A stretch of DNA of 64,000 bases, taken from contig CM000154.2 in the NCBI GenBank assembly GCA_000004695.1, forward strand, positions 3,264,001-3,328,000. Direction: 5' to 3'. The position numbers and the translations under genes are program-made. Shown piece by piece: positions 1-27,248 of this stretch (its first letter is position 1; every line of letters starts with the position of its first letter). The stretch is from Dictyostelium discoideum. Its lineage: Eukaryota. The notes beneath the pieces are model-generated. The model had not been told where the DNA came from. It worked only from the letters and a program-made list of their open reading frames with translations, and did no database searches.

Positions 1-1128
1 GACATCTAAAAGATAAAGTTCAAATCCTACAACCAATATTAACAAAAAACCAACCCTCTCAAACATTAAACACAAATAATATTTCACTACCACCAACACT
101 CAAAGAAATCTACTCGACAATACTAAACAATCACCAATGCAAATCAAAAGACTATATTGGCAAGAAATATTCAGATCTACTTCTTACTCCGCACCAACAA
201 TCAATACAATTATTATGGAAATACACATACGACCAACTTTTTGTCAAAATTCAAAAATTAAAAGATCCAAAAGGCCGTGATACAATGCAAAGATTCCATG
301 CTAGATGTCTTCCGATTAATCATCTACACAACAAAGTTTGCCCCATTTGCAACAATGAAATGAATAATGATCCCTATGGTCATTTGTTTTTCAATTGTCA
401 GCACACAATCAACTCCATTAACCACGACAAATTAAAATATTTTATATATAAAAATTGCAATGGAAACAAAAACTGGTCACTAACAAAAAACCAAACAACA
501 AAATTATACACACTCATCTATAAACCACAAACAAACAACAAAGCATTTAAACCAGATCCAACTATCAATATTAATTTTCATTTTGCAGAAAACGCACAAT
601 ATAAAAAATACAGGTTCAACTGGAATTATATAAACACAAATCTTGATCTAGTCAGAACACATGCATATTGGAACATAATCTCATTAGTTATTCACCAAAT
701 ATGGATATGGTTATGCAAATCATTATTTGACATCAATATAACTCAATCAATTGATAATTGGAACAACCAAATAAACAACACAACACTAGATTATGATATA
801 TTAAAATCAAAATGGCACAAGCTAATAAGATTGGAATATTCAAGAACTTTATCAAACTTTAACCAATACTCAATTAAAAACAACCTCACAAAAACTCAAA
901 AAGAAACCCAATGGTCTGAAACCATCAAAAAATTTAAAAAAGAATGGAGCATAAACACAAATGAACCAATTCCAACAATTACACCACCAATTAATTATTA
1001 ATTACCTAATCTAAAATAACATACTATTTTAAATTCACAAAAACTAAAAAACCTAAAATAAATAAATAAAAATAACATACTAATTGTATACTACAATAGT
1101 TTATTTATATCAAAAAAAAAAAAAAGAC
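1..1128 (+). mobile_element. 3' portion of a non-LTR (LINE/TRE-like) retrotransposon ending in an oligo(A) run (1116-1128)
   Basis: The plus strand from 1 to 1100 is strongly A/C-rich and G/T-poor, the coding-strand asymmetry seen in Dictyostelium non-LTR elements. It carries a long ORF with a C-terminal Cys/His motif, followed by about 100 nt of UTR and A13. The window start truncates the element at its 5' end. Confidence 0.45.
285..1001 (+). CDS. Retroelement ORF2 C-terminal fragment with a CX2CX10HX4C zinc-knuckle-like motif (CPICNNEMNNDPYGHLFFNC)
   Basis: A 238-aa ORF lies on the A-rich strand. Its Cys/His spacing resembles the conserved C-terminal motif of LINE ORF2 proteins. No host-gene similarity was recognised. 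Confidence 0.4.
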   Translation: MQRFHARCLPINHLHNKVCPICNNEMNNDPYGHLFFNCQHTINSINHDKLKYFIYKNCNGNKNWSLTKNQTTKLYTLIYKPQTNNKAFKPDPTININFHFAENAQYKKYRFNWNYINTNLDLVRTHAYWNIISLVIHQIWIWLCKSLFDINITQSIDNWNNQINNTTLDYDILKSKWHKLIRLEYSRTLSNFNQYSIKNNLTKTQKETQWSETIKKFKKEWSINTNEPIPTITPPINY

Positions 1129-6256: not shown

Positions 6257-9200
6257 TTAACCAAATTTTGGGAAATAATTCATTATTGTTTTCCAGTAAC
6301 TTTCTGGATGGGTTGAACAATGATTTTGATAAAAATGTATAAATAGTGTTCTAATTTGAGTAAGTCTTTGTTTTCTTCTTTCTTCAATCTCTTTGAAACT
6401 TAATGATTGACTATGATGACTATGTTGTTCATTTATATTTGATGTTGATTTTGATTTTTCATTATTATTATTATTTTGATTTTGATTTTGATTTTGATTT
6501 TGATTTTGATTTTGATTTTGATTTTGACCAACTTTATTAAGATTATTAATTTGATTTACTTTATTATTTGGTTGATTTTTGGTATTAATTTGATTTTTTA
6601 AAGTATCAAAATATTTATTTTCAAAAGAGAAAGCATTATCCCAACTTTGAGCTAAGCAATCACTATCATTATCTTCATCATCTGAAACCAATTTATGAGA
6701 TTTATCCTCTTCAGTCTCTTCACTTTGTTCACTACCAGTGAAACTACTAGATGGATGATAATTCTTTGGAGTTGAACCACCACCACTATTCAATGAACCA
6801 ATAATTCTTTTTTCAGTGAATGAACCCATCAATTGCCAACTACCACCAATTTCTGGTTCAACTTGAATATCATCATCTGATCCTCTTCTTCTCTTTGGTC
6901 CATTTGGTACATCCATTGGTATACTCGTACCTGAAGTTGCTGGTGATGTATGTAATTGGTGATGACCATGATGACCATGATGTCCATGATGTGATTGTTT
7001 AATCATAATAGATGATGATCCAAAACTACCAGCTATATTATTATTACTATTCATTGGTGAGTGAGAAATTGGTGTTGGCGGAGCTGATGTATTATTATTA
7101 TTGGTACTATTATTGGTACTATTATTGTTAGTGTTATTATTATTATTAAAATTATTATTATTATTATTATTACCAACTTTATTCATACCAATAAATAATT
7201 TTGGAGAATTATTTTGAGGAGTTACTGGTGCAGATTGAGAAATATCAATACCTTTTGTATTCCAACTACTTGGTGAAGAGTTTTTGTGTCCACCAATATT
7301 ACTATTATTATTACTATTTGATTTGTTTGATTTGTTTATATTTTTTACATTATTATTATTATTATTATTATTGTCTACAATATTTTTTCTATCTACATAA
7401 TTATTTACAATCTCTAATGGTTGTTGAGAATTTGAATTTTTACGATTACCAGTTGGAGTATTACCTTTATTATTTACAGATTGTTGTGATTGTGCTTGTT
7501 GTAACTGTTGTTTTAGTAATCCCATACCACTATTATTTGTAGTTTGTTGTTTTTCTTGTTGTTTATCTTGTTGTTTATCTTGTTGTTGTTGTTGATTTAA
7601 TTTATTAAAAGTATGAATTGAAAAATCCATTGAAGAGATGAAATCCAAGAAATAAAAACAGAAATAAAATATATCTTCACCTTTACCAGCTCTATCACAA
7701 AGTTGATGAGAGAATAAGAACCAATCGTAGGCAACCGTTAAAAAGAGCATTTCCCAATCCTTTAAAGATTGATGAACCTCACCATCAGCCCAAAGACTGA
7801 TTCTAAGTAATGAAATAAACAATGGTGTTCTATCCCATCCAGATATACAATGAACTAATAAACCAGATGGGTTATTATCATCAGATACATATTTTAATAA
7901 TAACTTGAAATAATTTTGTGTTAAATTTACTATTAAAAAGAGAAAAAAAAAAAAAAAAAATAATAGTTAATATATATCTATTTTTTTTTTATTTTTTTAT
8001 TTTTTAATATTAATATACTTACTTAAATCCCAAGTTTTATAAGATTCCCATGGTATCATTGGTAATTGATGATCTGGATGTAAATTTAATTCTGCTGGAT
8101 CTTCAATACCATCCCAAGAATAAAATAAATCTTTTCCACAATGTTGATTTCTATTAAAATCTGCAAAAAATTCTACACCAGGATAAGGAGTAGAAGAAAT
8201 TACAAAATCTTGATATCTTCGATGCATATCAACTTTTTCTGATGAACAAACAAAGAAACCAAACCTTTTTTTTTTTTTTTTAAAAAAATAAAAAATAAAA
8301 ATAAAGGTTAATGAAATTTGTTTTTATTATAATTATTATTATTATTTATTACTTACTTTTTCTTTTTATTTTCAACCATTAAATCACAAATGTATCTAAT
8401 ATTTAAATGTTTAATAACTAGAATATCATTATTTCTAAGATGTTCCATATCTAATTGTTGTTGTGCCTGTTGTTGTCGTATTTGAGTTGACTGTTGTTGT
8501 GCTTGTTGTTGATCATGTTGGCCTTCAACATGTGAATCATGATGTTGATAATGTTGATTAATAACTGAAGAAGTCATTGTACTATCATTTTTATTTAATC
8601 TATCAATATCAATTGAATCTTCAATCATACTATTAGTAATTGGATTATTTTGATTATTATTATTATTATTATTTTGATTATTATTATTATTATTAATTTG
8701 ATTATTATTATTATTTTGATTATTATTATTATTTTGATTATTATTATTATTACTAAACATTATAGATTGTGATAAAGAAGAAGTTGTTGGAGATGGAACA
8801 GAAGAAAATTGTTTTTTCATTGAATTAACACCAGATTGAAACATATATTCAATCTTTTGAGAGAGTGTTGAGGATCTACAAAGATTTTTATGATGATAAA
8901 ATATAACTGGAAATGGGAATCTTGTTCTTACACGTGCAAATCTAGATTGATCCAATAATTTTTCTAAATTACGAGAGAGTTCTGGATGAACGTGTTTATT
9001 CTTTTCTTTACATACTTTACATCCTGTCTCTAACTCGTGTTCAATAAAAATTAAATCTGGTGGGTATGTTGCGCATAATTCACCTTCTTTATTATTGATT
9101 AATGATATTTTATAATCTTTTTCAAATAATGTATTTACAATTTCTTGATATTTAAATAATTCCTTGTTTTTTTGTTTTGTTGTTGTTTTGTTTTAAATTA

Positions 9201-10463
9201 ATTAAATAATAAAAAAAAAAAAAAATTATTTAATATTAATATATATAATTATATAATATTAATAATAATTATTTTAAACTTACTTCATCTCTTTTACCAG
9301 GGAATGGTTGTTTATATCTTCTAAAATGAGCAAACATTTCGGCTAATTCAGATGCCAATGAATCACCACATGCAAGCGAGGGGTTAACTTCAAAAGAGTT
9401 CATTGTATTGGCATCGTTTGTCGTATTATCACCATTTGACGATATATCTTCAGAGACAACTATAGATGGTTCATCATCGTCATTGCTATTGATTGTGTTA
9501 TTATTATAGGAAACGAATTCTCTCTACTTATATTGCAAGTATTATTATTACTACTGCTGTCACTATTATTATTATTGTTTTTATTATTATTATTATTATT
9601 GTTATTATTATTATTATTACTGCTGCTGTTACTACTACTACCACTACTATCGTTTTCGACAGATTTTTTAGGGGATTGTGAACAAGGTGTATTTGAAGGC
9701 TTTATTGAAGAAATTAATTGTTCTGTTGTTGAGGATGGTGGTGTGCTAGAGGTAATTACCATTTTAATGGATTTGTTTTTTTAATGAGGTGAAAGTAATT
9801 GAGCGTATTCCTAGTGTGTGTCTTTTTTTTTTTTTTTTTTTTTTTTTTTNNNNNNNNNNNNNNNNNNNNNNNNNNNNNNNNNNNNNNNNNNNNNNNNNNN
9901 NNNNNNNNNNNNNNNNNNNNNNNNNNNNNNNNNNNNNNNNNNNNNNNNNTTCAAATAATGTATTTACAATTTCTTGATATTTAAATAATTCCTTGTTTTT
10001 TTGTTTTGTTGTTGTTTTGTTTTAAATTAATTAAATAATAAAAAAAAAAAAAAATTATTTAATATTAATATATATAATTATATAATATTAATAATAATTA
10101 TTTTAAACTTACTTCATCTCTTTTACCAGGGAATGGTTGTTTATATCTTCTAAAATGAGCAAACATTTCGGCTAATTCAGATGCCAATGAATCACCACAT
10201 GCAAGCGAGGGGTTAACTTCAAAAGAGTTCATTGTATTGGCATCGTTTGTCGTATTATCACCATTTGACGATATATCTTCAGAGACAACTATAGATGGTT
10301 CATCATCGTCATTGCTATTGATTGTGTTATTATTATTATTTGGTATTATTGGTGATATTGGACTTGGAATATCTTCATTGTTATTACTATTATTATTATT
10401 ATTATTATTTACATTTGGTTCATATGATACTTTTTTAAATTGCTTTGGTATATATGTATTTTC

Positions 10464-10505
<42 letters not shown>

Positions 10506-10958
10506 GTTATTGTTATTAGTACAATTATAGCTTTCATTTATTAAAATTTCGGATTTAGAATTTAATATCTCTTCATTTCTGCTGTTGTTATTATTATTGT
10601 CACAACTATTATTATTATTACTATTATTATAGGTTTCATTATTCTCTTCTACAGCAACTGCTTCTTCTAATGTTAAATCCATCATGAAAGGAAACGAATT
10701 CTCTCTACTTATATTGCAAGTATTATTATTACTACTGCTGTCACTATTATTATTATTATTATTGTTTTTATTATTATTATTATTATTATTATTGTTATTA
10801 TTATTATTATTATTATTACTGCTGTTACTACTACTACCACTACTATCGTTTTCGACAGATTTTTTAGGGGATTGTGAACAAGGTGTATTTGAAGGCTTTA
10901 TTGAAGAAATTAATTGTTCTGTTGTTGAGGATGGTGGTGTGCTAGAGGTAATTACCAT
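6257..10958 (-). CDS. Myotubularin-related phosphoinositide 3-phosphatase (CX5R active site HCISGWDRT), at least 4 exons: complement(join(6257..7929,8023..8238,8357..9162,[gap],10113..10958))
   Basis: Recalled MTM1 shows three collinear blocks: the catalytic loop VHCSDGWDRT vs LVHCISGWDRTPLFISLL here, the upstream block CETYP...SKFRSKGRFPVLSYYH vs CATYPPDL...SRFARVRTRFPFPVIFYHH here, and a downstream KDW...F.H block. All splice junctions (GTAAGT donors at 10112, 8356 and 8022; AG acceptors at 9163, 8239 and 7930) keep phase. There are very long N/Q-rich insertions. The 5' end passes through the 100-N gap and a duplicated segment (see findings). Confidence 0.75.
9121..9840 (-). pseudogene. Variant second copy of the myotubularin exon-2 5' end + intron 1 + exon 1, carrying a ~350-bp internal deletion that breaks the reading frame (ORF 9460..9762 ends ...FPIIITQSIAMTMMNHL*)
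   Basis: Positions 9121-9500 are essentially identical to 9950-10330 and 14881-15260. The copy then jumps to the equivalent of 10690 ('gattgtgttattattatag|gaaacgaattc'). It abuts the N-gap, so it may be a collapsed-repeat assembly artefact or a real tandem partial duplicate. Confidence 0.5.
9850..9949. other. Assembly gap (100 N)
   Basis: A run of exactly 100 'n' sits between poly-T at 9830-9849 and duplicated sequence that resumes at 9950. Confidence 0.99.
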
Positions 10959-11553
10959 TTTAATGGATTTGTTTTTTAATGAGGTGAAAGTAATTGAGCG
11001 TATTCCTAGTGTGTGTCTTTTTTTTTTTTTTTTTTTTTTTTTGGTTTTTTTTTTTTTTTAATTTATTTATTATTTTTTTTTTTTATTTTTTCTATTTTTT
11101 TTTATATTTTTTATTTTATTTTTTTTTTTTTTTATTTTGGTTTTTTTGAGTTTAACTTAATAAAAAAAAAAATAAAAAAAAATAAAAAAAAATAAAAAAT
11201 AAAAATTAAAAAAAAAAAAAAAAAAAAAAAAATAAAATAAAATAAAATAAAAAAAAAAATAAAGATAAACCTGAAAAAGAGAAATGATTATTTAAATATA
11301 CCTCTTTTTTTTTTAAGATTTAATTTTATATGTATTCAATATTTTTTATTTTAAAATTTAAATATCCATTTACAAACCAATTTTCAAAATTATTATTCAA
11401 GTTATCCAATAAAAATAGGCAATTTTCAATGACTAAAAAGGAAATACCATAAAGTTAAGATAGAATTAAATACATAATTAAGGAATTGATTTTTTTATTT
11501 TTTTTTTTTTTATTGGAATTGTTTAATTTAACCTAATGTTATTTTTCTGAATT

Positions 11554-13147
11554 CTATTTAATTATTTTTACATTTTTTGAAACATAAGGTTCAATTTGAT
11601 GTTTAAAACTTGTGAAAACTTTTACTTCCTTTACAGTATTAGGAATTGAACCAATTATTAATTCTTGTTTAATATCGCCTAAACGCAACGATTCAACACC
11701 ATCTGGTAATATACCTGGTGTTAATTTTTGATTGAATCCATCTTTTAAAGTAACACGAGTTACAGTATTAGGAATTGAACCAATTATTAATTCTTGTTTA
11801 ATATCGCCTAAATACAAGGATTTAACACCATCTGGTAATATACCTGGTGTTAATTTTTGATTGAATCCATCTTTTAAAGAGACAAGAGTTACAGTATTAG
11901 GAATTGAACCAATCATTAATTCTTGTTTAATATCGCCTAAATACAACAATTTAATACTATCTGGTAATATACCTGGTGTTAATTTTTGATTGAATCCATC
12001 CAATAAAGAGACATGAGTTACAGTATTAGGAATTGAACCAATCATTAATTCTTGTTTAATATCACCTAAATACAAGGATTTAACGCCATCTGGTAATATA
12101 CCAGGTGTTAATTTTTGATTGAATCTATCCAAGAGCATTACAGTAGATGGTAATTGATTTTTTAATTTTGATAAAATATTACAATTGTCTTTGAATGCTA
12201 TACCTTCATTCTCCTTAAATTTAAATGAATCATCCTCTATATAAACATAAAACTTTGAACTATCCCCTATATTTGGTAATTAGAATGATGTAAACATAAT
12301 TTATAAAAAAAACTGTATAAAGCTTACATTTAAAAAATTTATTTTTATTTTCATCGATTTCAATTATAAATCTACAATTATCTAAGGTATAAATTGATTT
12401 TAAATTATTTTTAATATCATCAATTATTTGATTATGGAAATGAATGATTTGATTATCGTATTCATTTAATTTATTTGAATTATTGATATTATTATTATTA
12501 TTTAATACTATTAATGATTGTTGATATTGTTTAATAATTTTAATTGTATCTCTATCAATAATAAAATCTTCTCCATTATCATAAATTTGTTGATCATTAA
12601 ATTTTATAATTTCATTTAATTTTTCAATAGTTGTAGTTCTATCATTTTCATTTTCATTATTATTATTAATTATAGTTGAAAGTATTTGATTATCATTATT
12701 GATTGAAGAAGTTATAATTGTATTTATTAATGTATTATTTTCAAAGGTTGTTTCTAATTGTTTTTTAATATCTAATTCTATGATTGAAATGATATCATGA
12801 ATTTTTTTAATTTCTTTTTTTAATGAATTATTATTAATATCAAATTGTGATTGAATTTCATTGTATTTATCATTTGATTCTTGTAATATTGTTTCATTGA
12901 TTTCTATTCTTTCAATTACTTTTTGGTATATATCATTTTTAAAATTATTCATTAATGAAAGAATATTTGAAGTTGATTCTAATGGATCAGTTTTATGACC
13001 ATGATGTTCACCTTTACTTGATGTACATTGAATACAACATGGTATTAATTTACAATCTAAACAAAAGAATACTATATCTTTATTTGGGTGAAGTGTACAC
13101 TTTTTATTATTATCAATATTATTTATTTTATTATGATTTGAAATCAT
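11554..13147 (-). CDS. B-box zinc finger + coiled coil + FNIP-repeat protein (cluster copy 1), about 510 aa: complement(join(11554..12266,12328..13147))
   Basis: The B-box motif is [36 protein letters not shown]. Splice AAAT|GTAAGC...CCAAATATAG|GG runs in phase 1 and creates Trp, joining the B-box exon to ...WDSSKFYVYIEDD...MLLDRFNQKLTPGILPDG. The second exon has about 7 FNIP repeats (FNQKLTPGILPxxVKxLxLGDIKQELIIGSIPNTVT). The start is probably the M of MISNHNK (13147); the longer ORF-track start reads through promoter poly-T. Confidence 0.8.
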
Positions 13148-13494
13148 TGTGTTTGGGATTGGTGTGGATGTAAAAAAAAAAAAAAAAAATTTGGAACCAG
13201 AAATTTTTATATGAGACACCAAAAATAAAAAAAAATAAAAAAAATAAAAATAAAATCGCTTAAAAAATTAAGAAAAACAAAATCTTTTTTTTTTTTTTTT
13301 TTTAAAAAATAAATAAATAATTAAATATTTATATTGTTATTGATAAAAATTTAAAAAAAGGAAAAATATTTTGAATTCAATCGTTAATCATTTTTTTTTT
13401 ATAAAAAAAAAAGATATAATTTAATTATATATACAATGTTTTTTAAATCTCTATTTTTGGAACATTTTAATAGTAAATTAAATTTAAATATGTT

Positions 13495-13575
13495 TGCTGA
13501 CATTAATATGGCTGCTGAAATTAATATGCATGTAAATTAATATGGATGCTAAAATTAATATGGGACACACTATTG
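13495..13575. repeat. Array of 4 tandem ~17-bp units '(c)tg(c/a)(t/a)aaattaatatgg' ending in '...atgggac'; a solo terminus related to the 18706-19322 palindromic element
   Basis: The units read ctgacattaatatgg / ctgctgaaattaatatgc / atgtaaattaatatgg / atgctaaaattaatatgggac. The same motif is the sub-terminal repeat of the TIR element at 19146-19322. The array lies about 350 bp upstream of gene copy 1. Confidence 0.4.
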
Positions 13576-13906
13576 GCAATTTTAAATCACTAAAAAATAT
13601 CATCATGGTACAGCGGATCAATTAAATGGATTTTGTAATTTGAGGGTAAAAACAAATTTACTCAAACCTGGAATTAAATATACCTAAACCCATTCAAATG
13701 TTACCATTTGACGCCATATGGTAGTAAACTACTATTAATCATATTGATTATTTTATTTAAATTTTCAATTAAAACATTACAATGAGCAGTTTTGCGATGA
13801 TTTGCTTTTTTAAAACTCTGTTGGAAAATTATTAATATTTATTATATTTGATGTTATTTCTTCATTTTATCTTGTTTTGTCATGATTAGTAGGTTGGCTG
13901 TACCTG

Positions 13907-14440
13907 TTAACAGTAGTTTCTTACACTCTTTACAGTATTAGGAATTGAACCAATCATTAATTCTTGTTTAATATCACCTAAATACAACCATTCAACACTA
14001 TCTGGTAATATACCTGGTGTTATTTTTTGATTGAATTCATTCAATAAAGAGACACTCGTTACAATATTAGGGATTGATCCAATCTCCAATTCTTGTTTAA
14101 TATCGCCTAAACTCAACCATTTAACACCAACTGGTAAAATGCCTGGTTTTAATCTTTGATTGAATCCATCCAATAAAGAGACATGAGCTACAGTATTAGG
14201 AATTGAGCCAATTATTAATTCTTGTTTAATATCACCTAAATACAAGGATTTAACACCAACTGGTAAAATGCCTGGTGTTAATTTTTGATTGAATCCATCC
14301 AATAGCATTACATTTGATGGTAATTGATTTTTTAATTTTGATGATGAAATATTACAATTGTCTTTGAATGCTATACCTTCATTCTCCTTAATTTTAAATG
14401 AATTACCCTCTATATAAATATAAAACTTTAAATTATCCCC
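13907..14440 (-). pseudogene. 5'-truncated FNIP-repeat exon fragment (about 4 repeats) with a diverged 3' end (...NTVKSVRNYC*)
   Basis: It is homologous to the exon-2 / intron / B-box-exon boundary of the intact copies up to 14440. There the sequence switches abruptly to myotubularin-derived sequence. Its 3' flank is shared with the degenerate fragment at 23845-23925. Confidence 0.6.
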
Positions 14441-14543
14441 TAATGTTGATTAATAACTGAAGAAGTCATTGTACTATCATTTTTATTTAATCTATCAATA
14501 TCAATTGAATCTTCAATCATACTATTAGTATTGGATTATTTTG

Positions 14544-14594
<51 letters not shown>

Positions 14595-15392
14595 TTGATT
14601 ATTATTATTATTTTGATTATTATTATTATTATTACTAAACATTATAGATTGTGATAAAATATAACTGGAAATGGGAATCTTGTTCTTACACGTGCAAATC
14701 TAGATTGATCCAATAATTTTTCTAAATTACGAGAGAGTTCTGGATGAACGTGTTTATTCTTTTCTTTACATACTTTACATCCTGTCTCTAACTCGTGTTC
14801 AATAAAAATTAAATCTGGTGGGTATGTTGCGCATAATTCACCTTCTTTATTATTGATTAATGATATTTTATAATCTTTTTCAAATAATGTATTTACAATT
14901 TCTTGATATTTAAATAATTCCTTGTTTTTTTGTTTTGTTGTTGTTTTGTTTTAAATTAATTAAATAATAAAAAAAAAAAAAAATTATTTAATATTAATAT
15001 ATATAATTATATAATATTAATAATAATTATTTTAAACTTACTTCATCTCTTTTACCAGGGAATGGTTGTTTATATCTTCTAAAATGAGCAAACATTTCGG
15101 CTAATTCAGATGCCAATGAATCACCACATGCAAGCGAGGGGTTAACTTCAAAAGAGTTCATTGTATTGGCATCGTTTGTCGTATTATCACCATTTGACGA
15201 TATATCTTCAGAGACAACTATAGATGGTTCATCATCGTCATTGCTATTGATTGTGTTATTATTATTATTTGGTATTATTGGTGATATTGGACTTGGAATA
15301 TCTTCATTGTTATTACTATTATTATTATTATTATTATTTACATTTGGTTCATATGATACTTTTTTAAATTGCTTTGGTATATATGTATTTTC

Positions 15393-15434
<42 letters not shown>

Positions 15435-16290
15435 GTTATTGTTATTAGTACAATTATAGCTTTCATTTATTAAAATTTCGGATTTAGAATTTAATATCTC
15501 TTCATTTCTGCTGTTGTTATTATTATTGTCACAACTATTATTATTATTACTATTATTATAGGTTTCATTATTCTCTTCTACAGCAACTGCTTCTTCTAAT
15601 GTTAAATCCATCATGAAAGGAAACGAATTCTCTCTACTTATATTGCAAGTATTATTATTACTACTGCTGTCACTATTATTATTATTATTATTGTTTTTAT
15701 TATTATTATTATTATTATTATTGTTATTATTATTATTATTATTATTACTGCTGTTACTACTACTACCACTACTATCGTTTTCGACAGATTTTTTAGGGGA
15801 TTGTGAACAAGGTGTATTTGAAGGCTTTATTGAAGAAATTAATTGTTCTGTTGTTGAGGATGGTGGTGTGCTAGAGGTAATTACCATTTTAATGGATTTG
15901 TTTTTTAATGAGGTGAAAGTAATTGAGCGTATTCCTAGTGTGTGTCTTTTTTTTTTTTTTTTTTTTTTTTTTGGTTTTTTTTTTTTTTTAATTTATTTAT
16001 TATTTTTTTATTTTATTTTTTCTATTTTTTTTTTATATTTTTTATTTAAATTTTTTTTTTTTTTTTTTTTTTTTATTTTGGTTTTTTTTGAGTTAAACTT
16101 AATAAAAAAAAAAAAAATAAAAAAAAAATAAAAAATAAAAATTAAAAAAAAAAAAAAAAAAAAAATAAAATAAAATAAAAAAAAAATAAAGATTAACCTA
16201 AAAAAAGAAATGATTATTTAAATATCCCTCTTTTTTTTTTTAAGATTTAATTTTATATGTATTCAATATTTTTTATTTTAAAATTTAAAT
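14441..16290 (-). pseudogene. Segmental duplicate of the myotubularin 5' region (part of exon 2 with a ~160-bp deletion, intron 1, complete exon 1 15042..15887, promoter), fused to FNIP sequence
   Basis: ORF 15027..15887 is 100% identical to 10098..10958. Positions 14455-14640 match 8561-8760 apart from poly-AAT length. The internal deletion is at 14660 ('gtgataaa|atataactgg'). The copy contains none of the catalytic exons. Confidence 0.65.
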
Positions 16291-16630
16291 ATGTTAAAAC
16301 ACTCTTTTTTTTTTTTTTTTTTTTTTTTTTTCAAGATTCAATTAAACACTGCCCTCTAAAGGAATAAAAGTAACAGTAATGTAAGTATTAAAAAAATTTT
16401 CAATATTATGCAAATTTCCATTATACTATCCTGATTTTTTTGAAATTTCAAAAAAAAAAAATATCTTTTTACAAATTATTATTCAAGTTATCTAATAAAA
16501 ATAGGCAATTTTCAATGACTAAAAAGGAAATACCATAAAGTTAAGATAGAATTTCCCAATTAAATACATAATTAAGGAATTGATTTTTTTTTTTTTTTTT
16601 TTTATTGGAATTGTTTAATTTAACCTAATG

Positions 16631-18518
16631 TTATTTTTCTGAATTCTTTTTAATTATTTTTACATTTTTTGAAACATAAGGTTCAATTTGATGTTTAAAA
16701 CTTGTGGAAACATTTACTTCCTTTACAGTATTAGGAATTGAACCAATTATTAATTCTTGTTTAATATCGCCTAAATTCAACGATTCAAAACCATCTGGTA
16801 ATATACCTGGTGTTAATTTTTGATTGAATCCATCTTCTAAAGTGACACGAGTTACAGTATTAGGAATTGAACCAATTATTAATTCTTGTTTAATATCACC
16901 TAAATCCAACGATTCAACACTATCTGGTAGAATACCTGGTGTTAATTTTTGATTGAATCCATCTTCTAAAGAGACATTCTTTACAGTATTAGGAATTGAA
17001 CCAATCATTAATTCTTGTTTAATATCACCTAAATCCAACGATTCAACACCTTCTGGTAGAATATCTGGTGTTAATATTTGATTGAATCCATCTTCTAAAG
17101 AGACAAGAGTTACAGTATTAGGAATTGAACCAATCATTAATTCTTGTTTAATATCACCTAAATACAACCATTTAACACTATCTGGTAATATACCTGGTGT
17201 TAATTTTTGATTGAATCCATCTTTTAAAGAGACAAGAGTTACAGTATTAGGAATTGATCCAATAATTAATTCTTGTTTAATATCACCAAAAAACAACCAT
17301 TCTACGCCATTTGGTAAAATACCTGGTGTCAATTTTTGATTGAATCCATCCAATAAAGAGACACGAGTTACAGTATTAGGAATTGAACCAATTATTAATT
17401 CTTGTTTAATATCACCTAAATACAAGGATTTAACGCCATCTGGTAATATACCAGGTGTTAATTTTTGATTGAATCCATCCAATAGCATTACATTTGATGG
17501 TAATTGATTTTTTAATTTTGATAAAATATTACAATTGTTTTTGAATGCTGTACCTTCATTCTCCTTAAATTTAAATGAATCACCCTCTATATAAACATAA
17601 AACTTTAAATTATCCCCTATATTTGGTTATTAGAATGATGTAAACATAATTTATAAAAAAAACTGTATAAAGCTTACATTCAAAAAATTCATTATTATTT
17701 TCATCGATTTCAATTTTAAATCTACAATTATCTAAGGTATAAATTGATTTTAAATTATTTTTAATATCATCAATTATTTGATTATGGAAATGAATGATTT
17801 GATTATCATATTCATTTAATTTATTTGAATTATCGATATTATTATTATTATTTAATACTATTAATGATTGTTGATATTGTTTAATAATTTTAATTGTATC
17901 TCTATCAATAATAAAATCTTCTCCATTATCATAAATTTGTTGATCATTAAATTTTATAATTTCATTTAATTTTTCAATGGTTGTAATTCTATCATTTTCA
18001 TTTTCATTTTCATTTTCATTTTTATTATTTTTATTATTAATTATAGTTGAAAGTATTTGATTATCATTATTGATTGAAGAAGTTATAATTGTATTTATTA
18101 ATGTATTATTTTCAAAGGTTTTTTCTAATTGTCTTTTAATATCTAATTCTATGATTGAAATGATGTCATGAATTTTTTTAATTTCTTTTCTTAATGAATT
18201 ATTATTATTATCAAATTGTGATTGAATTTCATTGTATTTATCATTTGATTCTTGTAATATTGTTTCATTGATTTCTATTCTTTCAATTACTTTTTGATAT
18301 ATATCATTTTTAAAATTATTCATAAATGAAAGAATATTTGAAGTTGATTCTAATGGATCAGTTTTATGACCATGATGTTCACCTTTACTTGATGTACATT
18401 GAATACAACATGGTATTAATTTACAATCTAAACAAAAGAATACTATATCTTTATTTGGGTGAAGTGTACATTTTATATTATTATCAATATTATTTATTGT
18501 ATTATGATTTGATACCAT
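16631..18518 (-). CDS. B-box + FNIP-repeat protein (cluster copy 3), about 608 aa, about 9 FNIP repeats: complement(join(16631..17616,17678..18518))
   Basis: The architecture and the phase-1 intron (GAAT|GTAAGC...ATATAG|GG) match copy 1. The ORF is intact, but the usual 5' flank is replaced from 18531 by foreign sequence. Confidence 0.8.
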
Positions 18519-18705
18519 TGTGTTTGGGATTGGTGTGGATGTATTGAGAACCGGTTCTCAATCAATCGCACAACCTATTTATCAAACTAATCAAGGTATA
18601 AAAATGCAACTATAAATGTTACTATGTAAATACAACCATTCAACACTATCTGGTAATATATGTGGTGTTAGTTTTTGATTGAATCCATTTTTTAAATAGA
18701 CATGT

Positions 18706-19322
18706 GTCCCATGCCAAAATAAAACGAAACTTCATCTGTTAGTAACAAAAGAGTAAGCAGAAGAGTCAATAATTAAAATAAAAAATATTATTTTAATTTT
18801 TTTTTTTTTTTTTTTTTTTTATTTTTTTTTATTTTTTTTTATTTTTAATTTTTTATTTATAATTTTTTTTTTTTGTGAGCCGGCTAGACATAAATGAATA
18901 ATAAAAAAATATATACCAACTAAAAAAAAAAGAAATGAAAATAAATTATAAAATTAATAATAAAAATAAAAAGATAAAAATAAATAAAAGATATAAATAA
19001 AATAATATGAAAATTTTTTTTTTTTTTTTTATATTATTATAATTATTTTTTTTTAGTTGATATATATTTTTTTAATAATAATTTTAGTGCTAAAATTTTG
19101 TTTATATTTGAGATGATTATTAATTAAATGACTTTGACTTTTTTTTTTTTTCTATGCCAAAATTACCATATTAATTTCAGCAGCCATATTAATTTCGGCA
19201 GCTATGTACATGCTGAAATTAATATGGCTGCTGAAATTAATACGGTAATTTTGGCAGACGTAAGTCCCATGCCAAAATTAATATGGCTGCTGAAATTAAT
19301 ATGGTAATTTTGGCATGGGACA
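18706..19322. mobile_element. About 620-bp non-autonomous palindromic (MITE-like) element bounded by 15-bp TIRs GTCCCATGCCAAAAT / ATTTTGGCATGGGAC, with nested sub-terminal hairpins
   Basis: The left TIR is at 18706-18720, inserted into an FNIP-homologous fragment (18630-18705). The right TIR is at 19308-19322. 19143-19262 and 19265-19322 are near-perfect hairpins built from 'gctgaaattaatatgg' units. No ORF lies inside. Confidence 0.45.
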
Positions 19323-19949
19323 AATAAATAAGGAATAAATTATTTAAAAAAAATAAAAATTCTTATATTTTAATATTTTTTATTTAAATATTTATTGTAC
19401 ACCCATTATTTTTTATCATTTTATTATAGTTTTTAATAATATACAATATCATATATTAAACTATAATTTAATGTTTTAAAAAATGAGAAATTACAATAGT
19501 ATTATTTCCTATTAATTGTTGTATATTATTAAATTATAGTTTTATGTTTTAAAAAATGAGAAATTACAATAGTATATTGTGGTAAATCAATAAATTTTTT
19601 ATAATTTAATGACAAATTAATATTCAATTTTAATTAAATAATTTTAGATTTTATCAATTTTTAATTTATTAAAATATATTTTTATTATGGCCAGATTCTT
19701 TTTTATTATTTTATGATAATGTGTGATTAATTATTAATTAGAAATTGATATTAGTTTGTTAAAAATTTTATTACATTATAATATCGTTTCTTAAAATATG
19801 AGTTTTTGCGGTAGTTTAATTTCTCACAAAATAGTAAAATTTCTTAGGTTTTTTTTCTCTGGTGAATACATAATTAAGGAATTGATTTTTTTTTTTTTTT
19901 TTTTTTTATTGGAATTGTTTAATTTAACCTAATGTTATTTTTCTGAATT

Positions 19950-22900
19950 CTATTTAATTATTTTTACATTTTTTGAAACATAAGGTTCAATTTGATGTTT
20001 AAAACTTGTGGAAACATTTACTTCCTTTACAGTATTAGGAATTGAACCAATTATTAATTCTTGTTTAATATCGCCTAAATTCAACGATTCAACACCATCT
20101 GGTAATATACCTGGTGTTAATTTTTGATTGAATCCATCTTCTAAAGTGACACTCTTTACAGTATTAGGAATTGAACCAATTATTAATTCTTGTTTAATAT
20201 CACCTAAATCCAACGATTCAACACTATCTGGTAGAATACCTGGTGTTAATTTTTGATTAAATCCATCTTCTAAAGAGACATGAGTTACAGTATTAGGAAT
20301 TGAACCAATCATTAATTCTTGTTTAATATCACCTAAATACAACGATTCAACACCTTCTGGTAGAATACCTGGTGTTAATTTTTGATTGAACCTATCTTCT
20401 AACGAGACATTCGTTACAGTATTAGGAATTGAACCAATTATTAATTCTTGTTTAATATCGCCTAAATACAACAATCCAACACTTTCTGGTAATATACGTG
20501 GTGTTAATTTTTGATTGAATCCATCTTTTAAAGAGACACTCGTTACAGTATTAGGAATTGAACCAATTATTAATTCTTGTTTAATATCACCTAAATACAA
20601 CAATCCAACACTTTCTGGTAAAATACCTGGTGTTAATATTTGATTGAATCCATCTTCTAAAGAGACAAGAGTTACAGTATTAGGAATTGAACCAATCATT
20701 AATTCTTGTTTAATATCACCTAAATACAACAATTTAACACTATCTGGTAATATACCTGGTGTTAATTTTTGATTGAATCCATCTTTTAAAGAGACAAGAG
20801 TTACAGTATTAGGAATTGATCCAATAATTAATTCTTGTTTAATATCACCTAAATCCAACAATTTAATACTATCTGGTAATATACCTGGTGTTAATTTTTG
20901 ATTGAATCCATCTTTTAAAGTGACACGAGTTACAGTATTAGGAATTGAACCAATCATTATTTCTTGTTTAATATCACCTAAATACAACCATTCAACACTA
21001 TCTGGTAAAATACCTGGTGTTAATTTTTGATTGAATCTATCCAATAAAGAGATATGAGTTACAGTATTAGGAATTGAACCAATCATTAATTCTTGTTTAA
21101 TATCACCTAAATGCAACAATTTAACACTATCTGGTAATATACATGGTGTTAATTTTTGATTGAATCCATCTTTTAAAGAGACACGAGTTACAGTATTAGG
21201 AATTGAACCAATTATTAATTCTTGTTTAATATCGCCTAAATCCAACAATTTAATACTATCTGGTAATATACCTGGTGTTAATTTTTGATTGAATTCATCT
21301 TTTAAAGATACACGAGTTACAGTATTAGGAATTGAACCAATCATTATTTCTTGATTAATATCACCTAAATACAACCATTCAACACTATCTGGTAATATAC
21401 CTGGTGTTAATTTTTGATTGAATCCATCTTTTAAAGAGACAAGAGTTACAGTATTAGGAATTGAACCAATTATTAATTCTTGTTTAATATCACCTAAATA
21501 CAAGGATTTAACACCATCTGGTAATATACCTGGTGTTAATTTTTGATTGAATCCATCTTTTAAAGAGACATGGATTACAGTATTAGGAATTGAACCAATC
21601 ATTAATTCTTGTTTAATATCACATAAATCCAACAATTTAATACTATCTGGTAATATACCTGGGGTTAATTTTTGATTGAATCTATCCAATAAAGAGATAT
21701 GAGTTACAGTATTAGGAATTGAACCAATTATTAATTCTTGTTTAATATCGCCTAAATCCAACAATTTAATACTATCTGGTAATATACCTGGTGTTAATTT
21801 TTGATTGAATTCATCTTTTAAAGATACATGAGTTACAGTATCAGGAATTGAACCAATTATTAATTCTTGTTTAATATCACCTAAATACAAGGATTTAACA
21901 CAATATGGCAATATACCTGGTGTTAATTTTTGATTGAATCTATCCAATAAAGAGATATGGATTACAGTATTAGGAATTGAACCAATCATTAGTTCTTGTT
22001 TAATATCACCTAAATACAAGGATTTAATACTATCTGGTAATATGCATGGTGTTAATATTTGATTGAATCCATCCAATAAAGAGACATGGATTACAGTATT
22101 AGGAATTGAACCAATTATTAATTCTTGTTTAATATCACCTAAATACAAGGATTCAACGCCATCTGGTAATATACCAGGTGTTAATTTTTGATTGAATCCA
22201 TCCAATAGCATTACAGTTGATGGTAATTGATTTTTTAATTTTGATAAAATATTACAATTGTTTTTGAATGCTGTACCTTCATTCTCCTTAAATTTAAATG
22301 AATTACCCTCTATATAAACATAAAACTTTAAATTATCCCCTATATTTGGTAATTAGAATGATGTAAACATAATTTATAAAAAAAACTGTATAAAACTTAC
22401 ATTTAAAAAATTTATTATTATTTTCATCGATTTCAATTATAAATCTACAATTATTTAAGAAATAAATTGATTTTAAATTATTTTTAATATCATCAATTAT
22501 TTGATTATGGAAATGAATGATTTGATTATCGTTTTCATTTAATTTATTTGAATTATTGATATTATTATTATTATTTAATACTATTAATGATTGTTGATAT
22601 TGTTTAATAATTTTAATTGTATCTCTATCAATAATAAAATCTTCTCCATTATCATAAATTTGTTGATCATTAAATTTTATAATTTCATTTAATTTTTCAA
22701 TAGTTGTAGTTCTATCATTTTCATTTTCATTATTATTATTAATTATAGTTGAAAGTATTTGATTATCATTATTGATTGAAGAAGTTATAATTGTATTTAT
22801 TAATGTATTATTTTCAAAGGTTGTTTCTAATTGTTTTTTAATATCTAATTCTATGATTGAAATGATATCATGAATTTTTTTAATTTCTTTTTTTAATGAA

Positions 22901-23220
22901 TTATTATTAATATCAAATTGTGATTGAATTTCATTGTATTTATCATTTGATTCTTGTAATATTGTTTCATTGATTTCTATTCTTTCAATTACTTTTTGAT
23001 ATATATCATTTTTAAAATTATTCATTAATGAAAGAATATTTGAAGTTGATTCTAAGGGATCAGTTTTATGACCATGATGTTCACCTTTACTTGATGTACA
23101 TTGAATACAACATGGTATTAATTTACAATCTAAACAAAAGAATACTATATCTTTATTTGGGTGAAGTGTACATTTTATATTATTATCAATATTATTTATT
23201 GTATTATGATTTGATACCAT
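19950..23220 (-). CDS. B-box + FNIP-repeat protein (cluster copy 4), about 1,069 aa with about 24 FNIP repeats: complement(join(19950..22339,22401..23220))
   Basis: The B-box exon and the intron (AAAT|GTAAGT...ATATAG|GG, phase 1) are the same as in copies 1 and 3. Exon 2 is a single 2.39-kb open frame of near-identical 96-nt FNIP units. Confidence 0.8.
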
Positions 23221-23626
23221 TTTGTTTGGGGTTAATGTTGATTTAAAAAAAAAAAAAATTTGTTTTCGGAAATTTTTATATGAGACTTAATCCACCACCA
23301 AAAATCAAAAAAAAAAAATAAAAATAAAATCACTTAAAAAATTAAGAAAAAAAAAAACAAAATCATTTTTTTTTTTTATAATATTATTATTAAATAATTA
23401 AATAATTAAATATTTTTATTATTATTGATAATTTTTTGAAAAAAAAGAAAAATATTTTGAGTTAAATAATTAATCATTTTTTTTTATAAAAAAAAAAAGA
23501 TATTGCAACAAGATCTCAAAAATATCTTGTTAATACTAACATTTATTTAATTTCATGAAATGTTCTAAATTTAATTTTCAAAAAAAAAAAAAAAAATTTT
23601 TAATTATAATTTCAATTTCACAATAG

Positions 23627-23830
23627 ATATTAGATACCAGATATTAAAATGTCACACAACTTCAACAACTACAATAACATATTCAATTAGTTAATCAACA
23701 AACACAACAACGTCAACAACAACTAAATAATCACTCAACACCACCATCGTCACCTAATGTTACAACACCAATAACTTCAGCAACAATAACCAACACAATA
23801 GATATCTGGTATCTAATATCTATTGTATGA
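23627..23830. mobile_element. About 200-bp A/C-rich segment flanked by 22-bp inverted repeats (caatagatattagataccagatat ... atagatatctggtatctaatatctattg)
   Basis: The inverted repeats are read directly. The interior has retroelement-like A/C strand bias and only short ORFs. It lies in the copy-4 promoter region. Confidence 0.3.
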
Positions 23831-23924
23831 AATTATTGTAAAATATTTGATGTTATTTCTTCATTTTATCTTGTTTTGCCATATGATTAGTGGGTTGGTT
23901 GTACCTGTTAATGGTAGTTTCTTG

Positions 23925-25311
23925 AATAGGAAATTCTTCTCATTCTCTGGTAGTGATAGCATTTTCTGGTAAAATATCTGGTGTTAATTTTTGATTGAAT
24001 CCTTCTAATAAAAAGATATTCGTTACAGTATTAGGTATTGAACCAATTATTAATTCTTGTTTGATATCACCTAAATCCAATGATCCAACACTATCTGGTA
24101 ATATACCTGGTGTTAATTTTTGATTAAATCCATCTTCTAAAGTGACATTCATTACAGTATTAGGAATTGAACCAATTATTAATTCTTTTTTAATATCACC
24201 TAAATACAACCATTCAACACCATCTGGTAATATACCTGGTGTTAATTTTTGATTGAATCATCTTTTAAAGAGACAAGAGTTGCACTATCAGGAATTGAAC
24301 CAATCATTAATTCTTGTTTAATATCATACAAATGCAAACATTTAACACTATTTGGTAATATACCTGGTGTTAATTTTTGATTGAATCCATCCAATAAATC
24401 GACATTCGTTACAGTATTAGGAATTGAACCAATCTCTTATTCTTGTTTAATGTCACCTAAATACAATGAACCAAGACGATTTGGTAATATACCTGGTGTT
24501 AATTTTTGATTGAATCCATCTAGTAAAGAGATACTCGTTACAGTATTAGGAATTGAACCAATTATTAGTTCTTGTTTAATATCACCTAAATACAAAGATT
24601 TAACACCAACTGGTAAAATGCCTGGTGTTAATATTTGATTGAATCCATCCAATAGCATTACACGTGATGGTAATTGATTTTTTAATTTTGATAAAATATT
24701 ACAATTGTTTTTGAATGCTATATCTTCATTCGTCTTAAATTTAAATGAATCACCCTCTATATAAACATGAAACTTTGAATTATCCCCTATATTTGATAAT
24801 TAGAATGATGTGAACATAATTTATAAAAAACTGACTAAAGCTTACATTCAAAAAATTTATTATTATTTTCATCGATTTCAATTTTAAATCTACAATTATC
24901 TAAGGTATAAATTGATTTTAAATTATTTTTAATATCATCAATTATTTCATTATGGAAATGAATGATTTGATTATCGTATTCATTTAATTTATTTGAATTA
25001 TTGATATTATTATTATTATTTAATACTATTAATGATTGTTGATATTGTTTAATAATTTTAATGGTATCTCTATCAATAATAAAATCTTCTCCATCATTTT
25101 CATTTTCATTTTTACTACTACTATTGCCAACATTATTTTGCGATGCATCATTGGTGGCATTAGTAGTTGTAGTTGTAGTGGTAGTTGAATCGATGTTTTT
25201 AAGTTTGGAACTGATATCAGAATGTTCATCAATGGATGGATGTATAAATGATTGAATTTGAAAAAGATTATCTGCTATTGGTCTTTCTTCAAGTTGTGAT
25301 TTATCAATATA

Positions 25312-25368
<57 letters not shown>

Positions 25369-25841
25369 GTTGAAAGTATTTGATTATCATTATTGATTGA
25401 AGAAGTTATAATTGTATTTATTAATGTATTATTTTCAAAGGTTGTTTCTAATTGTTTTTGAATATCTAATTCTACGATTGAAATGATATCATGAATTTTT
25501 TTAATTTCTTTTTTTAATGAATTATTATTAATATCAAATTGTGATTGAATTTCATTGTATTTATCATTTGATTGTTTTAATATTGTTTCATTGATTTCTA
25601 TTCTTTTAATTACTTTTTGATGTACATCATCTTTAAAATTATTCATTAATGAAAGAATATTTGAAGTTGATTCTAATGGATCAGTTTTATGATCATGATG
25701 TTCACCTTTACTTGATGTACATTGAATACAACATGGTATTAATTTACAATCTAAACAAAAGAATACTATATCTTTGTTTGGGTGAAGTGTACACTTTTTA
25801 TTACTATCAATATTATTTATTTTGTTATGATTGGGTGCCAT
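23925..25841 (-). pseudogene. Degenerate fifth B-box/FNIP copy: frameshifted FNIP fragments (23940..24209, 24437..24658) and a B-box exon disrupted by a unique ~230-bp insertion and an (AAT)n expansion (25300-25370)
   Basis: The B-box motif is intact at 25700-25800. The coiled-coil part is interrupted at 25090-25320, and a poly-Ile readthrough '[10 protein letters not shown]' replaces the normal sequence. Several FNIP units have indels ('gattgaatca tcttttaaag'). Confidence 0.6.
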
Positions 25842-26072: not shown

Positions 26073-26203
26073 TTATTTTTTTGAAACTACCATACAACCA
26101 GTTTTAATATCATCAACCACTCTTTCTAATTTAAAATCAGCCAATTCAAATAATTCTTTCCATTCATCGAGAGTTCTTTCTTTTGCATTTACCATCTATT
26201 TGG

Positions 26204-26241
<38 letters not shown>

Positions 26242-27248
26242 TTACTTGTATATGTAAATAAATTTAAAAAAAAAAAAAAAAAAAATTTAATAATTACTTG
26301 AAACATTAAAATATCAATATAAGTTTCATATTTTGAATAACCTTTTCTTGGATCAATGATAATTTCAAATAAATGAATTTTTGCATTTGGTTTCATTGAT
26401 TTTGAAATTGTTTTTAAAATTTTAACACAATCTTGAGTTGGCCAATCATGAAGGATAAATTTCATGATATAACAATCTGATTCTGGTACACTTTCAAAGA
26501 AATTACCTGGAATATGAGTTAATCTTGGATGAGAATATCTTAAAGTCTGATCAGAGGAATTGATAACAACATCTAAATCGAAATTGATACCATGTTTAAT
26601 TGTTGGATAAATTTCCAATAGGTTACCAATTAACAATCCATGATTGCCACCAATATCAACCACTGTATCATATTGAGAGAAATCTATACCTTTTGATTGG
26701 GTGATATTGGATATGGCGGCTTCAGTGTAAACCTTCATAGTTTGATTGAACAAATCCTTATATTGTGGATGTAAATCGAATAATTCCCAAAAATGGTTGA
26801 CACCAACTGATTTTGTGGCATTACTATGACCATTTGCAAAAGTCTCTGGTAATGATTCAAACATTTTATAATGTAAATCATGGGTGTATCTTTCACCCAT
26901 TGGTCTAAGTTTACCCTTACTTGAAAACATTGTACTAATAGAAGTCTTTTCAAATGTACCAATATTTGATTTATCTTCGCTAAATAATTCATGAGCAACA
27001 AAATATCTCAATAATCTAAAACATGAATTTTCATCCATTCCAATCGTATCTGAAACTTGTTTAATTGATTTTGGTCCATCCTCTAAAATATCACAAATAT
27101 TCAATTTCATTACAATATTAAACATACGAGAATGAATATGTCCTGAAACACATGTCATAATTAAATTCATTGCTTTATCCCAATCTGTTGTAATTTCATT
27201 ATTCATATTTGTTATTGGTAATTGTGGGGTACTTAATCCTGAATCCAT
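26073..27248 (-). CDS. Class I SAM-dependent O-methyltransferase (plant COMT-like), about 357 aa: complement(join(26073..26195,26298..27248))
   Basis: The SAM-binding motif is VVDIGGNHGLLIGNLLEIYP and the OMT dimerisation region is FNIVMKLNICDIL. ...DILMFQ|GTAATT (26297) splices to CCAAATAG| at 26195, giving the typical OMT C-terminus MVNAKERTLDEWKELFELADFKLERVVDDIKTGCMVVSKK*. The terminal exon is not in the ORF track. Confidence 0.8.

Follow-up and report, generated by a model that had tools for sequence, protein, structure and literature searches.

How do neighbouring genes that are almost identical outside their repeats come to encode repeat arrays of very different length, and is such a difference real or a product of assembly? 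This question is raised by a 64,000-nucleotide stretch of the Dictyostelium discoideum genome (contig CM000154.2 of GCA_000004695.1, positions 3,264,001 to 3,328,000 of the forward strand), referred to here as the window. It contains five paralogous genes, all on the (-) strand at 11554-25841, for proteins with a B-box, a coiled coil and FNIP-type repeats; three are intact (c1, c3 and c4) and two are decayed (c2 and c5). An earlier reading of the same DNA, made without database searches and called here the sequence-only reading, described a more than 3-fold difference in repeat number between near-identical paralogs. This length variation is real and amounts to 4.25-fold, with 4, 6 and 17 units in c1, c3 and c4. 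However, the unit size and the counts given there are wrong, and concerted evolution, one of the explanations offered, is not supported. The genes and their arrays are as follows.

11554-13147 (-): c1, intact, 510 amino acids; exons 12328-13147 and 11554-12266, intron 12267-12327 (gene model, Pfam)
11614-12129 (-): FNIP array of c1, 4 units of 129 nt, 516 bp (Tandem Repeats Finder, anchor spacing of 129 nt, translations)
12980-13111 (-): B-box zinc finger of c1, residues 13-56 (Pfam PF00643, 33.7 bits against a cut-off of 24.1)
13907-14452 (-): c2, decayed exon-2 fragment with 3 diverged units (13913-14299), lacking exon 1 and altered at its 3' end
16631-18518 (-): c3, intact, 608 amino acids; exons 17678-18518 and 16631-17616, intron 17617-17677
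16706-17479 (-): FNIP array of c3, 6 units of 129 nt, 774 bp (Tandem Repeats Finder, anchors, 6 Pfam stretches)
19950-23220 (-): c4, intact, 1069 amino acids; exons 22401-23220 and 19950-22339, intron 22340-22400
20010-22202 (-): FNIP array of c4, 17 units of 129 nt, 2,193 nt, 34 turns resembling leucine-rich repeats (LRRs) (Tandem Repeats Finder, 17 Pfam stretches, AlphaFold2)
23940-25841 (-): c5, pseudogene adjoining omt9, with about 6 units (23965-24654)

The two decayed copies had been missed by the sequence-only reading. The limits that it set, 11554 and 22339, are true boundaries, as the stop codon of c1 ends at 11554 and exon 2 of c4 starts at 22339, and it rightly described exon 2 of c1, c3 and c4 as mostly a head-to-tail FNIP array. 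The three intact genes have in common a 61-nt phase 1 intron (GTAAG...ATAG), and their identity outside the arrays is 97.0-97.9% at the nucleotide level and 93-96% at the protein level. The c1 protein is an exact match of DDB_G0289849 (Q54GZ7). For c3 and c4 no exact match was found in the protein collection searched; their counterparts in the long-read assembly AX2-214, described below, are called as genes with products of 608 and 1069 amino acids. The pseudogene c5 carries in-frame stops and has lost 1 bp; its exon 1 contains a degenerate poly-I tract, and its intron is 59 nt long. The counterpart of c5 in AX2-214 is annotated as a multi-exon model of 464 amino acids (P0006).

The repeat unit is 129 nt, i.e., 43 codons, and Tandem Repeats Finder gives this period for every array. 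When the c4 array is compared with itself, the identity is 0.91 at lag 129 and 0.92 at lag 387, while at lag 96 it drops to 0.25. As this is below the background of 0.29, the 96-nt unit proposed earlier does not exist. At the half-unit lags, 63 and 66, the DNA identity is only about 40%. The earlier counts of 7, 9 and about 24 units correspond roughly to the exon-2 lengths of c1, c3 and c4 (713, 986 and 2390 nt) divided by 96 (7.4, 10.3 and 24.9); the real counts of 4, 6 and 17 come from anchors and unit translations, and the numbers of Pfam FNIP stretches match them. Counted as single turns of 21-22 residues, c1 has 8, c3 has 12 and c4 has 34. The length of each array divides exactly by 129 nt, and the reading frame is kept throughout. 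What had been taken for an uninterrupted 2.39-kb array in c4 is the entire exon 2, which consists of the 2,193-nt array, a 137-nt leader and a 60-nt tail. Units within a gene are 80-96% identical to each other (mean 88-90%), near the 85-95% claimed, and depart from their consensus at about 9 of 129 positions.

Arrays of this kind could be the result of faulty assembly, in which near-identical 129-bp repeats are collapsed or over-expanded while the true copies are equal in length. With units about 90% identical the concern is natural. The window was therefore compared with GCA_054883475.1, which we infer to be AX2-214, one of ten assemblies that Holland et al. (PMC12745789) built by combining Nanopore with Illumina reads. 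Here, the c3 and c4 genes agree with the window at 100% of positions, both arrays included, and window positions 16332-23524 are without any difference; over 15618-23524 the alignment has 35 differing columns, each of them within 15687-16331, where the DNA consists of homopolymers and other low-complexity sequence. The comparison with the Sanger-era AX4 reference was made through the c1 protein, which is identical in the two.

Two indels and a difference in omt9 show that the window is an assembly separate from AX2-214. In the neighbouring low-complexity 'MVITSS...' genes the window is longer by 829 bp (9121-10778) and by 352 bp (15266-15617). The 829 bp are a tandem duplication inside an N-rich 'MVITSS...' gene, where 9121-9507 equals 9950-10336. 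Both extras are either real strain differences or a mis-assembly of a duplicated segment that is 97-100% identical, and to that extent they speak for an assembly artefact. In omt9 (26078-27248, (-) strand) residue 96 is Phe in the window, while it is Ile in AX4, AX2-214, one further D. discoideum assembly and both D. cf. discoideum assemblies, the 355-amino-acid omt9 of the remaining D. discoideum assembly being left out of this comparison. The exact F96 variant is otherwise seen only in short Logan contigs, and on this evidence the window represents a third D. discoideum assembly or strain.

As c3 and c4 are identical in an independently made long-read assembly, their arrays are not an assembly artefact. 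About 9 differences from the consensus per 129-nt unit are also sufficient for unique read placement, and the arrays vary in four further long-read assemblies as well. An artefact is thus extremely improbable, and the long-read check proposed in the sequence-only reading comes out in favour of the arrays.

In those four assemblies the omt9-linked neighbourhood was read, via members of the omt9 cluster, within a reach of 10 kb; the wild-strain orthologue of the 17-unit c4 lay outside this reach. The following B-box paralogues and arrays were found.

GCA_054859355.1 (labelled D. discoideum): a 9-unit gene, 689 amino acids, beside omt9
GCA_054859385.1 (labelled D. discoideum): a 3-unit copy beside omt9
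GCA_054859235.1 (D. cf. discoideum): arrays of 7, 5 and 10 units
GCA_054859205.1 (D. cf. discoideum): arrays of 3 and 1 units

The arrays of 3, 5, 7, 9 and 10 units are in frame, and all have period 129. Comparing repeat numbers across strains had also been proposed, and the orthologous cluster does vary in unit number. As this number differs between strains and sister species, the description of the locus as a natural system for studying repeat-length evolution is reasonable. The same cluster contains an FNIP-only gene of about 340 amino acids, without B-box or coiled coil (L004 13633-14613; L005 16802-17782; L007 14298-15278; L008 12822-13802). It has 6 units in all four further assemblies and keeps unit-by-unit orthology across them, with a ratio of non-synonymous to synonymous divergence (dN/dS) of 0.31. 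Since the unit number of this gene is the same in all four, the lability of unit number is specific to the B-box paralogues. Fragment c2 may be a remnant of this FNIP-only gene; its assignment as the orthologue of the conserved 6-unit gene was tried and is ambiguous, as it is 84-92% identical to many units.

How, then, did the unit number change? The sequence-only reading proposed unequal crossing-over or concerted evolution. If gene conversion or unequal exchange homogenised the units inside each array, units should resemble those of their own gene most. They are indeed similar, 88-90% on average, and some c4 units are nearest to other c4 units (4/8, 7/10 and 13/14). However, units of one gene are on average 90.3% identical and units of different genes 90.6% (permutation p = 0.66), and for 9 of the 10 units of c1 and c3, the exception being c3.2, the nearest relative is in another gene. 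Positional orthologues are found at the start of the arrays (c1.1, c3.1 and c4.1, 96-98%) and at their end (c1.4, c3.6 and c4.17, 96-99%), and internally for c3.3 and c4.12 (99.2%), c3.5 and c4.16 (96.9%) and c1.3 and c4.6 (96.9%). The synonymous divergence is 0.13-0.14 between units, 0.024-0.048 between the N-terminal parts of the genes and 0.022-0.034 between positional orthologues, i.e., about four times higher between units than between genes. The unit-by-unit orthology of the FNIP-only gene points in the same direction. Concerted evolution is refuted by the present data, and we consider it highly unlikely as an account of these arrays. Without within-gene homogenisation, the units follow a birth-and-death course.

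The other half of the earlier proposal, out-of-register exchange, is supported by the lengths in multiples of 129 nt and by block duplicates. Units 7-9 and 10-12 of c4 are duplicates of a 3-unit block (95.6% identical, synonymous divergence 0.072), and in the 10-unit paralogue of D. cf. discoideum a 2-unit block is duplicated (Z.d1-2 and Z.d3-4, 99.2%). Compared with c3, the extra units of c4 are interior ones, about 2-10 and 13-14. Units c3.2 and c1.3 appear chimeric, as the two halves of each are closest to different units of c4. The identical half-units of c3.2/c4.11 and c1.3/c4.6 raised the idea of gene conversion between paralogues, which was set aside, since an identity over 64 nt is expected by chance at 2-3% divergence.

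We suggest the following course. Out-of-register homologous recombination or replication slippage between in-frame units about 90% identical would insert or remove whole units, singly or in blocks of 2-3, and as the units are this similar and in frame, such gains and losses would leave the reading frame and the fold unbroken. At the two ends, the first unit and the cap-like last one would stay anchored, as would some internal units, while the interior expands, contracts and becomes mosaic. The outcome would be 4, 6 and 17 units in genes otherwise 97-98% identical. Since the synonymous divergence between units exceeds that between genes, an array of diverged units predates the gene duplications, and a long array was therefore probably present before c3 and c4 split. 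Judged from these sequences, c1 and c3 are probably at least in part products of contraction; that c4 expanded recently is no more likely than that the ancestral array was long and contracted later in c1 and c3.

The encoded proteins have a zinc finger of the B-box type, a helix about 100 residues long, a small beta cap and an FNIP-type LRR solenoid. Pfam zf-B_box (PF00643) scores 33.5-35.1 bits across c1, c3 and c4 (cut-off 24.1), and C17, H20, C29, C32, C38, C41, H48 and H51 are invariant in 12 homologues that are 28-88% identical to c1. Pfam FNIP (PF05725) scores 165 bits in c1, 211.9 in c3 and 631.1 in c4 (cut-off 21). No Pfam match to a RING domain was found in the proteins, whose B-box starts at residue 13 after an N-terminus MxSNHN, and no DUF4559 was detected at E <= 0.01. 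Each 43-residue unit is a pair of unlike turns: the 22-residue turn A, VTHVSLLDGFNQKLTPGILPDG, has FN and LP, while the 21-residue turn B, VKSLYLGDIKQELIIGSIPNT, keeps IP and has IK in place of FN. The units agree with the described FNIP motif hxxhxhxxxFNxxhxxxIPxx in turns of about 22 residues (PMC9525666). However, the residue at -4 from FN is Leu and not Phe in 27 of 27 intact units (LLDGFN), so the units are FNIP repeats outside the FGxxFN subclass (PMC9525666).

An AlphaFold2 model of the c4 exon-2 product (795 amino acids) has a mean predicted local distance difference test score (pLDDT) of 86.7, one beta-strand per 21-22 residues and no helix on the convex side. In Foldseek its best match in the PDB is CroV588 (6nyr, E = 1.8e-30, 29% identity), followed by the CroV FNIP protein 7zal (E = 2.7e-5) and Toll-like receptor ectodomains. 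In the model of full-length c1 a helix spans 60-162, and beyond a small beta cap the solenoid takes up 315-509, at pLDDT above 90; the PDB matches are the same. The repeats are thus predicted to form an LRR-type beta-solenoid like that of CroV588.

Do the arrays behave as functional coding sequence? The most variable positions of the unit are 2, 14-18, 20, 29, 38, 39, 41 and 43, and many unit codons are invariant even at synonymous sites. Eight of the 12 most variable codons fall within the 14 predicted strand positions (P = 0.005), and variable and invariant positions alternate along the strand cores, at 18/19/20/21 and 39/40/41/42. In the predicted structure the variable residues would therefore lie on the exposed face of the beta-sheet. 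Scaffold codons have a dN/dS of 0.17-0.43. At strand x-positions set beforehand it is 0.97 among units, compared with 0.43 elsewhere and 0.31 in the FNIP-only gene, which is elevated but no proof of positive selection. A post-hoc class of variable codons gave 1.46 and was discarded as evidence for positive selection, because the choice of codons is circular. Among 68 unique unit variants there are no stops (P about 0.013 if neutral), while the pseudogene c5 has stops; the arrays are therefore kept as coding sequence under weak overall constraint.

These values leave room for neutral drift, in which the array of c4 would have grown long by runaway expansion, without any function, while the cluster as a whole degenerates into pseudogenes. 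Of the five copies two have already decayed, dN/dS is about 1 between positional orthologues (7.5 synonymous and 30.5 non-synonymous differences) and 0.5-0.9 in the N-terminal parts, and transposons occur throughout the orthologous cluster of wild strains. However, the spliced 3.2-kb coding sequence of c4 is intact in a genome of 22% guanine plus cytosine (15-31% in 2-kb windows of the stretch studied here), with stop-free open reading frames (ORFs) of 2.26 kb and 0.89 kb joined across an intron that contains a stop. The absence of stops in the unit variants, the low dN/dS of scaffold codons, the conserved splice sites, the eight intact zinc ligands out of eight and the confidently predicted solenoid all speak against drift as well. 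We regard it as rather unlikely.

We favour, and consider likely, the explanation that the genes of this tandem cluster arose by recent duplication and encode a cytosolic, RING-less, TRIM-like protein, which gains and loses whole repeat units and would serve as a protein-binding adaptor. The adaptor role is the best-supported one by inference. The coiled coil and B-box would mediate oligomerisation and the FNIP solenoid would be the recognition surface; since the variation lies on the exposed, predicted beta-face, the paralogues would differ in the reach and specificity of this surface. Several points weigh against this explanation. DDB_G0289849 is not named in any paper of the literature searched. 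The 17-unit array is known only from two closely related laboratory-type assemblies, and recombination or slippage is deduced from its products. The direction of change depends on the synonymous divergence of the c4 block duplicate (0.072) compared with that of c3/c4 orthologues (0.022), i.e., 6 against 2.5 differences (Fisher p = 0.07). The coiled-coil helix at 60-162 is modelled at moderate confidence (pLDDT 57-75). Finally, the dN/dS of about 1 between positional orthologues would fit relaxed constraint as well as diversifying selection.

What the locus offers is an assembly-validated case, in a haploid and genetically tractable model, of near-identical neighbours that encode solenoids of 8, 12 and 34 turns in a cluster that also varies between strains and sister species. 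Rates of in-frame unit gain and loss could be measured on it, and the effect of solenoid length on binding could be studied. No new mechanism is involved. Unit-number variation by unequal exchange is textbook knowledge for LRR gene clusters, and in-frame variation in unit number is ordinary evolution of repeat proteins. The locus is a genuine example of this known phenomenon in a very abundant family: FNIP is among the most abundant families of Dictyostelium, with 419 proteins in D. giganteum (bioRxiv 10.64898/2026.03.01.708701).

The surroundings of the cluster are themselves duplicated and repetitive.

8894-18543 (strand not assigned): tandem segmental duplication of about 5 kb, segment 8894-13417 against 14652-18543 (self-BLAST)

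Each segment includes the 5' part of an N-rich 'MVITSS...' gene; the first also has c1 and the second c3, and the 286-amino-acid 'MVITSS' ORFs at 10098-10958 and 15027-15887 are identical. A 450-amino-acid gene model of AX2-214 starts in the second-copy 'MVITSS' ORF and spans the FNIP fragment c2. Besides omt9 (O-methyltransferase 9), the window carries the TPR/Sel1 gene DDB_G0289781; together with the exact match of the c1 protein, these genes place it on chromosome 5 of D. discoideum. A 238-amino-acid ORF at 285-1001 (+) has no significant Pfam match; at the AX2-214 locus a 1596-amino-acid non-LTR (long terminal repeat) retrotransposon gene (Exo_endo_phos and RVT_1) abuts the end that corresponds to 285-1001. 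No tRNA genes were found in window positions 1-30000.

Transposons are interspersed in the orthologous cluster of GCA_054859355.1, GCA_054859385.1 and GCA_054859205.1, with retrotransposon (RVT, integrase) and DDE-transposase ORFs at L004 16277-21236, L005 14305-15036 and L008 16990-19752. Such ORFs are absent from the FNIP-cluster part of the laboratory-strain window. One candidate member, P0007 of GCA_054859385.1, was rejected because it is placed elsewhere, at 4.71 Mb, among DUF4419 genes; it encodes 430 amino acids with a degenerate B-box, is interleaved with four DUF4419 genes and adjoins a polyketide synthase (L002). The model P0003 is an FNIP-DUF4419 fusion, and FNIP and DUF4419 genes may travel together. 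The FNIP/B-box gene models P0011 (DDB_G0290101), P0016 and P0017 have in common a non-FNIP segment, 'NLLEPEIKYT...ITGAFGSIIS...', just upstream of which P0011 has a weak zf-RVT match. These non-FNIP segments probably derive from retrotransposons, as fragments that either became fused to FNIP genes or were included in their annotation.

Among known systems, the closest in sequence are the FNIP/IP22 proteins (PF05725; 6nyr, 7zal), with which these genes have in common the strong Pfam match, turns of 21-22 residues, the FN and I/L-P motifs and the predicted solenoid. However, in the 'double phenylalanine spine' subclass the motif is FGxxFN, where LLDGFN is found here (PMC9525666), and here two unlike turns make up one repeat of 43 residues, and the array is joined to a B-box and a coiled coil. 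FNIP-type LRRs are substrate-receptor-like domains in Dictyostelium Skp1 interactors (PMC9485057), and the FNIP protein chtB affects social competition (PMC3559258). The sequence-only reading called the architecture lineage-specific and of unknown function. The former fits the matches, which are all from Dictyostelium where the source is named, in a test that was not exhaustive; the latter is nearly right, except that a distant B-box and FNIP protein, AreA (DDB_G0279871), has a known role, as it binds Atg101 and damps autophagic flux (PMC4554924). AreA is the sole characterised protein with a B-box followed by FNIP repeats. However, it has a DUF4559 that is not detected here, and it is a distant paralogue rather than an orthologue. 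The AreA cluster members DDB_G0279877 and DDB_G0279899 are likewise distant matches, with 28% and 48% local identity.

The order of B-box, long coiled-coil helix (as modelled) and variable C-terminal recognition domain is also that of TRIM/RBCC proteins, and HHpred of AreA pointed to TRIM B-boxes as well (PMC4554924). The C-terminal domain is an FNIP LRR here, however, not SPRY, NHL or similar, and as there is no RING the proteins are TRIM-like in architecture but not TRIMs; direct similarity to a TRIM B-box is not significant (TRIM2, E = 0.96). It can be speculated, although we think it unlikely, that the B-box, coiled-coil and FNIP genes are an amoebal, RING-less counterpart of TRIM/NLR-type intracellular recognition receptors. 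If so, the cluster turnover, the transposon-rich surroundings, the changes in unit number and the variation on the exposed beta-face would be the footprint of an arms race, the opponents could be giant viruses or intracellular bacteria, for example, which themselves encode many FNIP proteins, and solenoid length, from 8 to 34 turns, would be a selected parameter of specificity or avidity.

Two further groups of LRR proteins resemble the arrays in how their units multiply. LRRs of the ribonuclease-inhibitor type have alternating A and B turns of 28 and 29 residues, and there too a pair of unlike turns duplicates as one block. Here, however, the turns are of 22 and 21 residues, and the model is without a convex-side helix. 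Variation in the number of LRR units within tandem clusters is known from the plant Cf-4/Cf-9 and RPP5-type resistance genes and from the Listeria internalins. The genes described here belong to another LRR subclass in an intracellular B-box and coiled-coil setting, and positive selection is not demonstrated for them; what they have in common with those clusters is the same orientation of the genes, the in-frame gain and loss of whole LRRs and the variation on exposed beta-strand residues.

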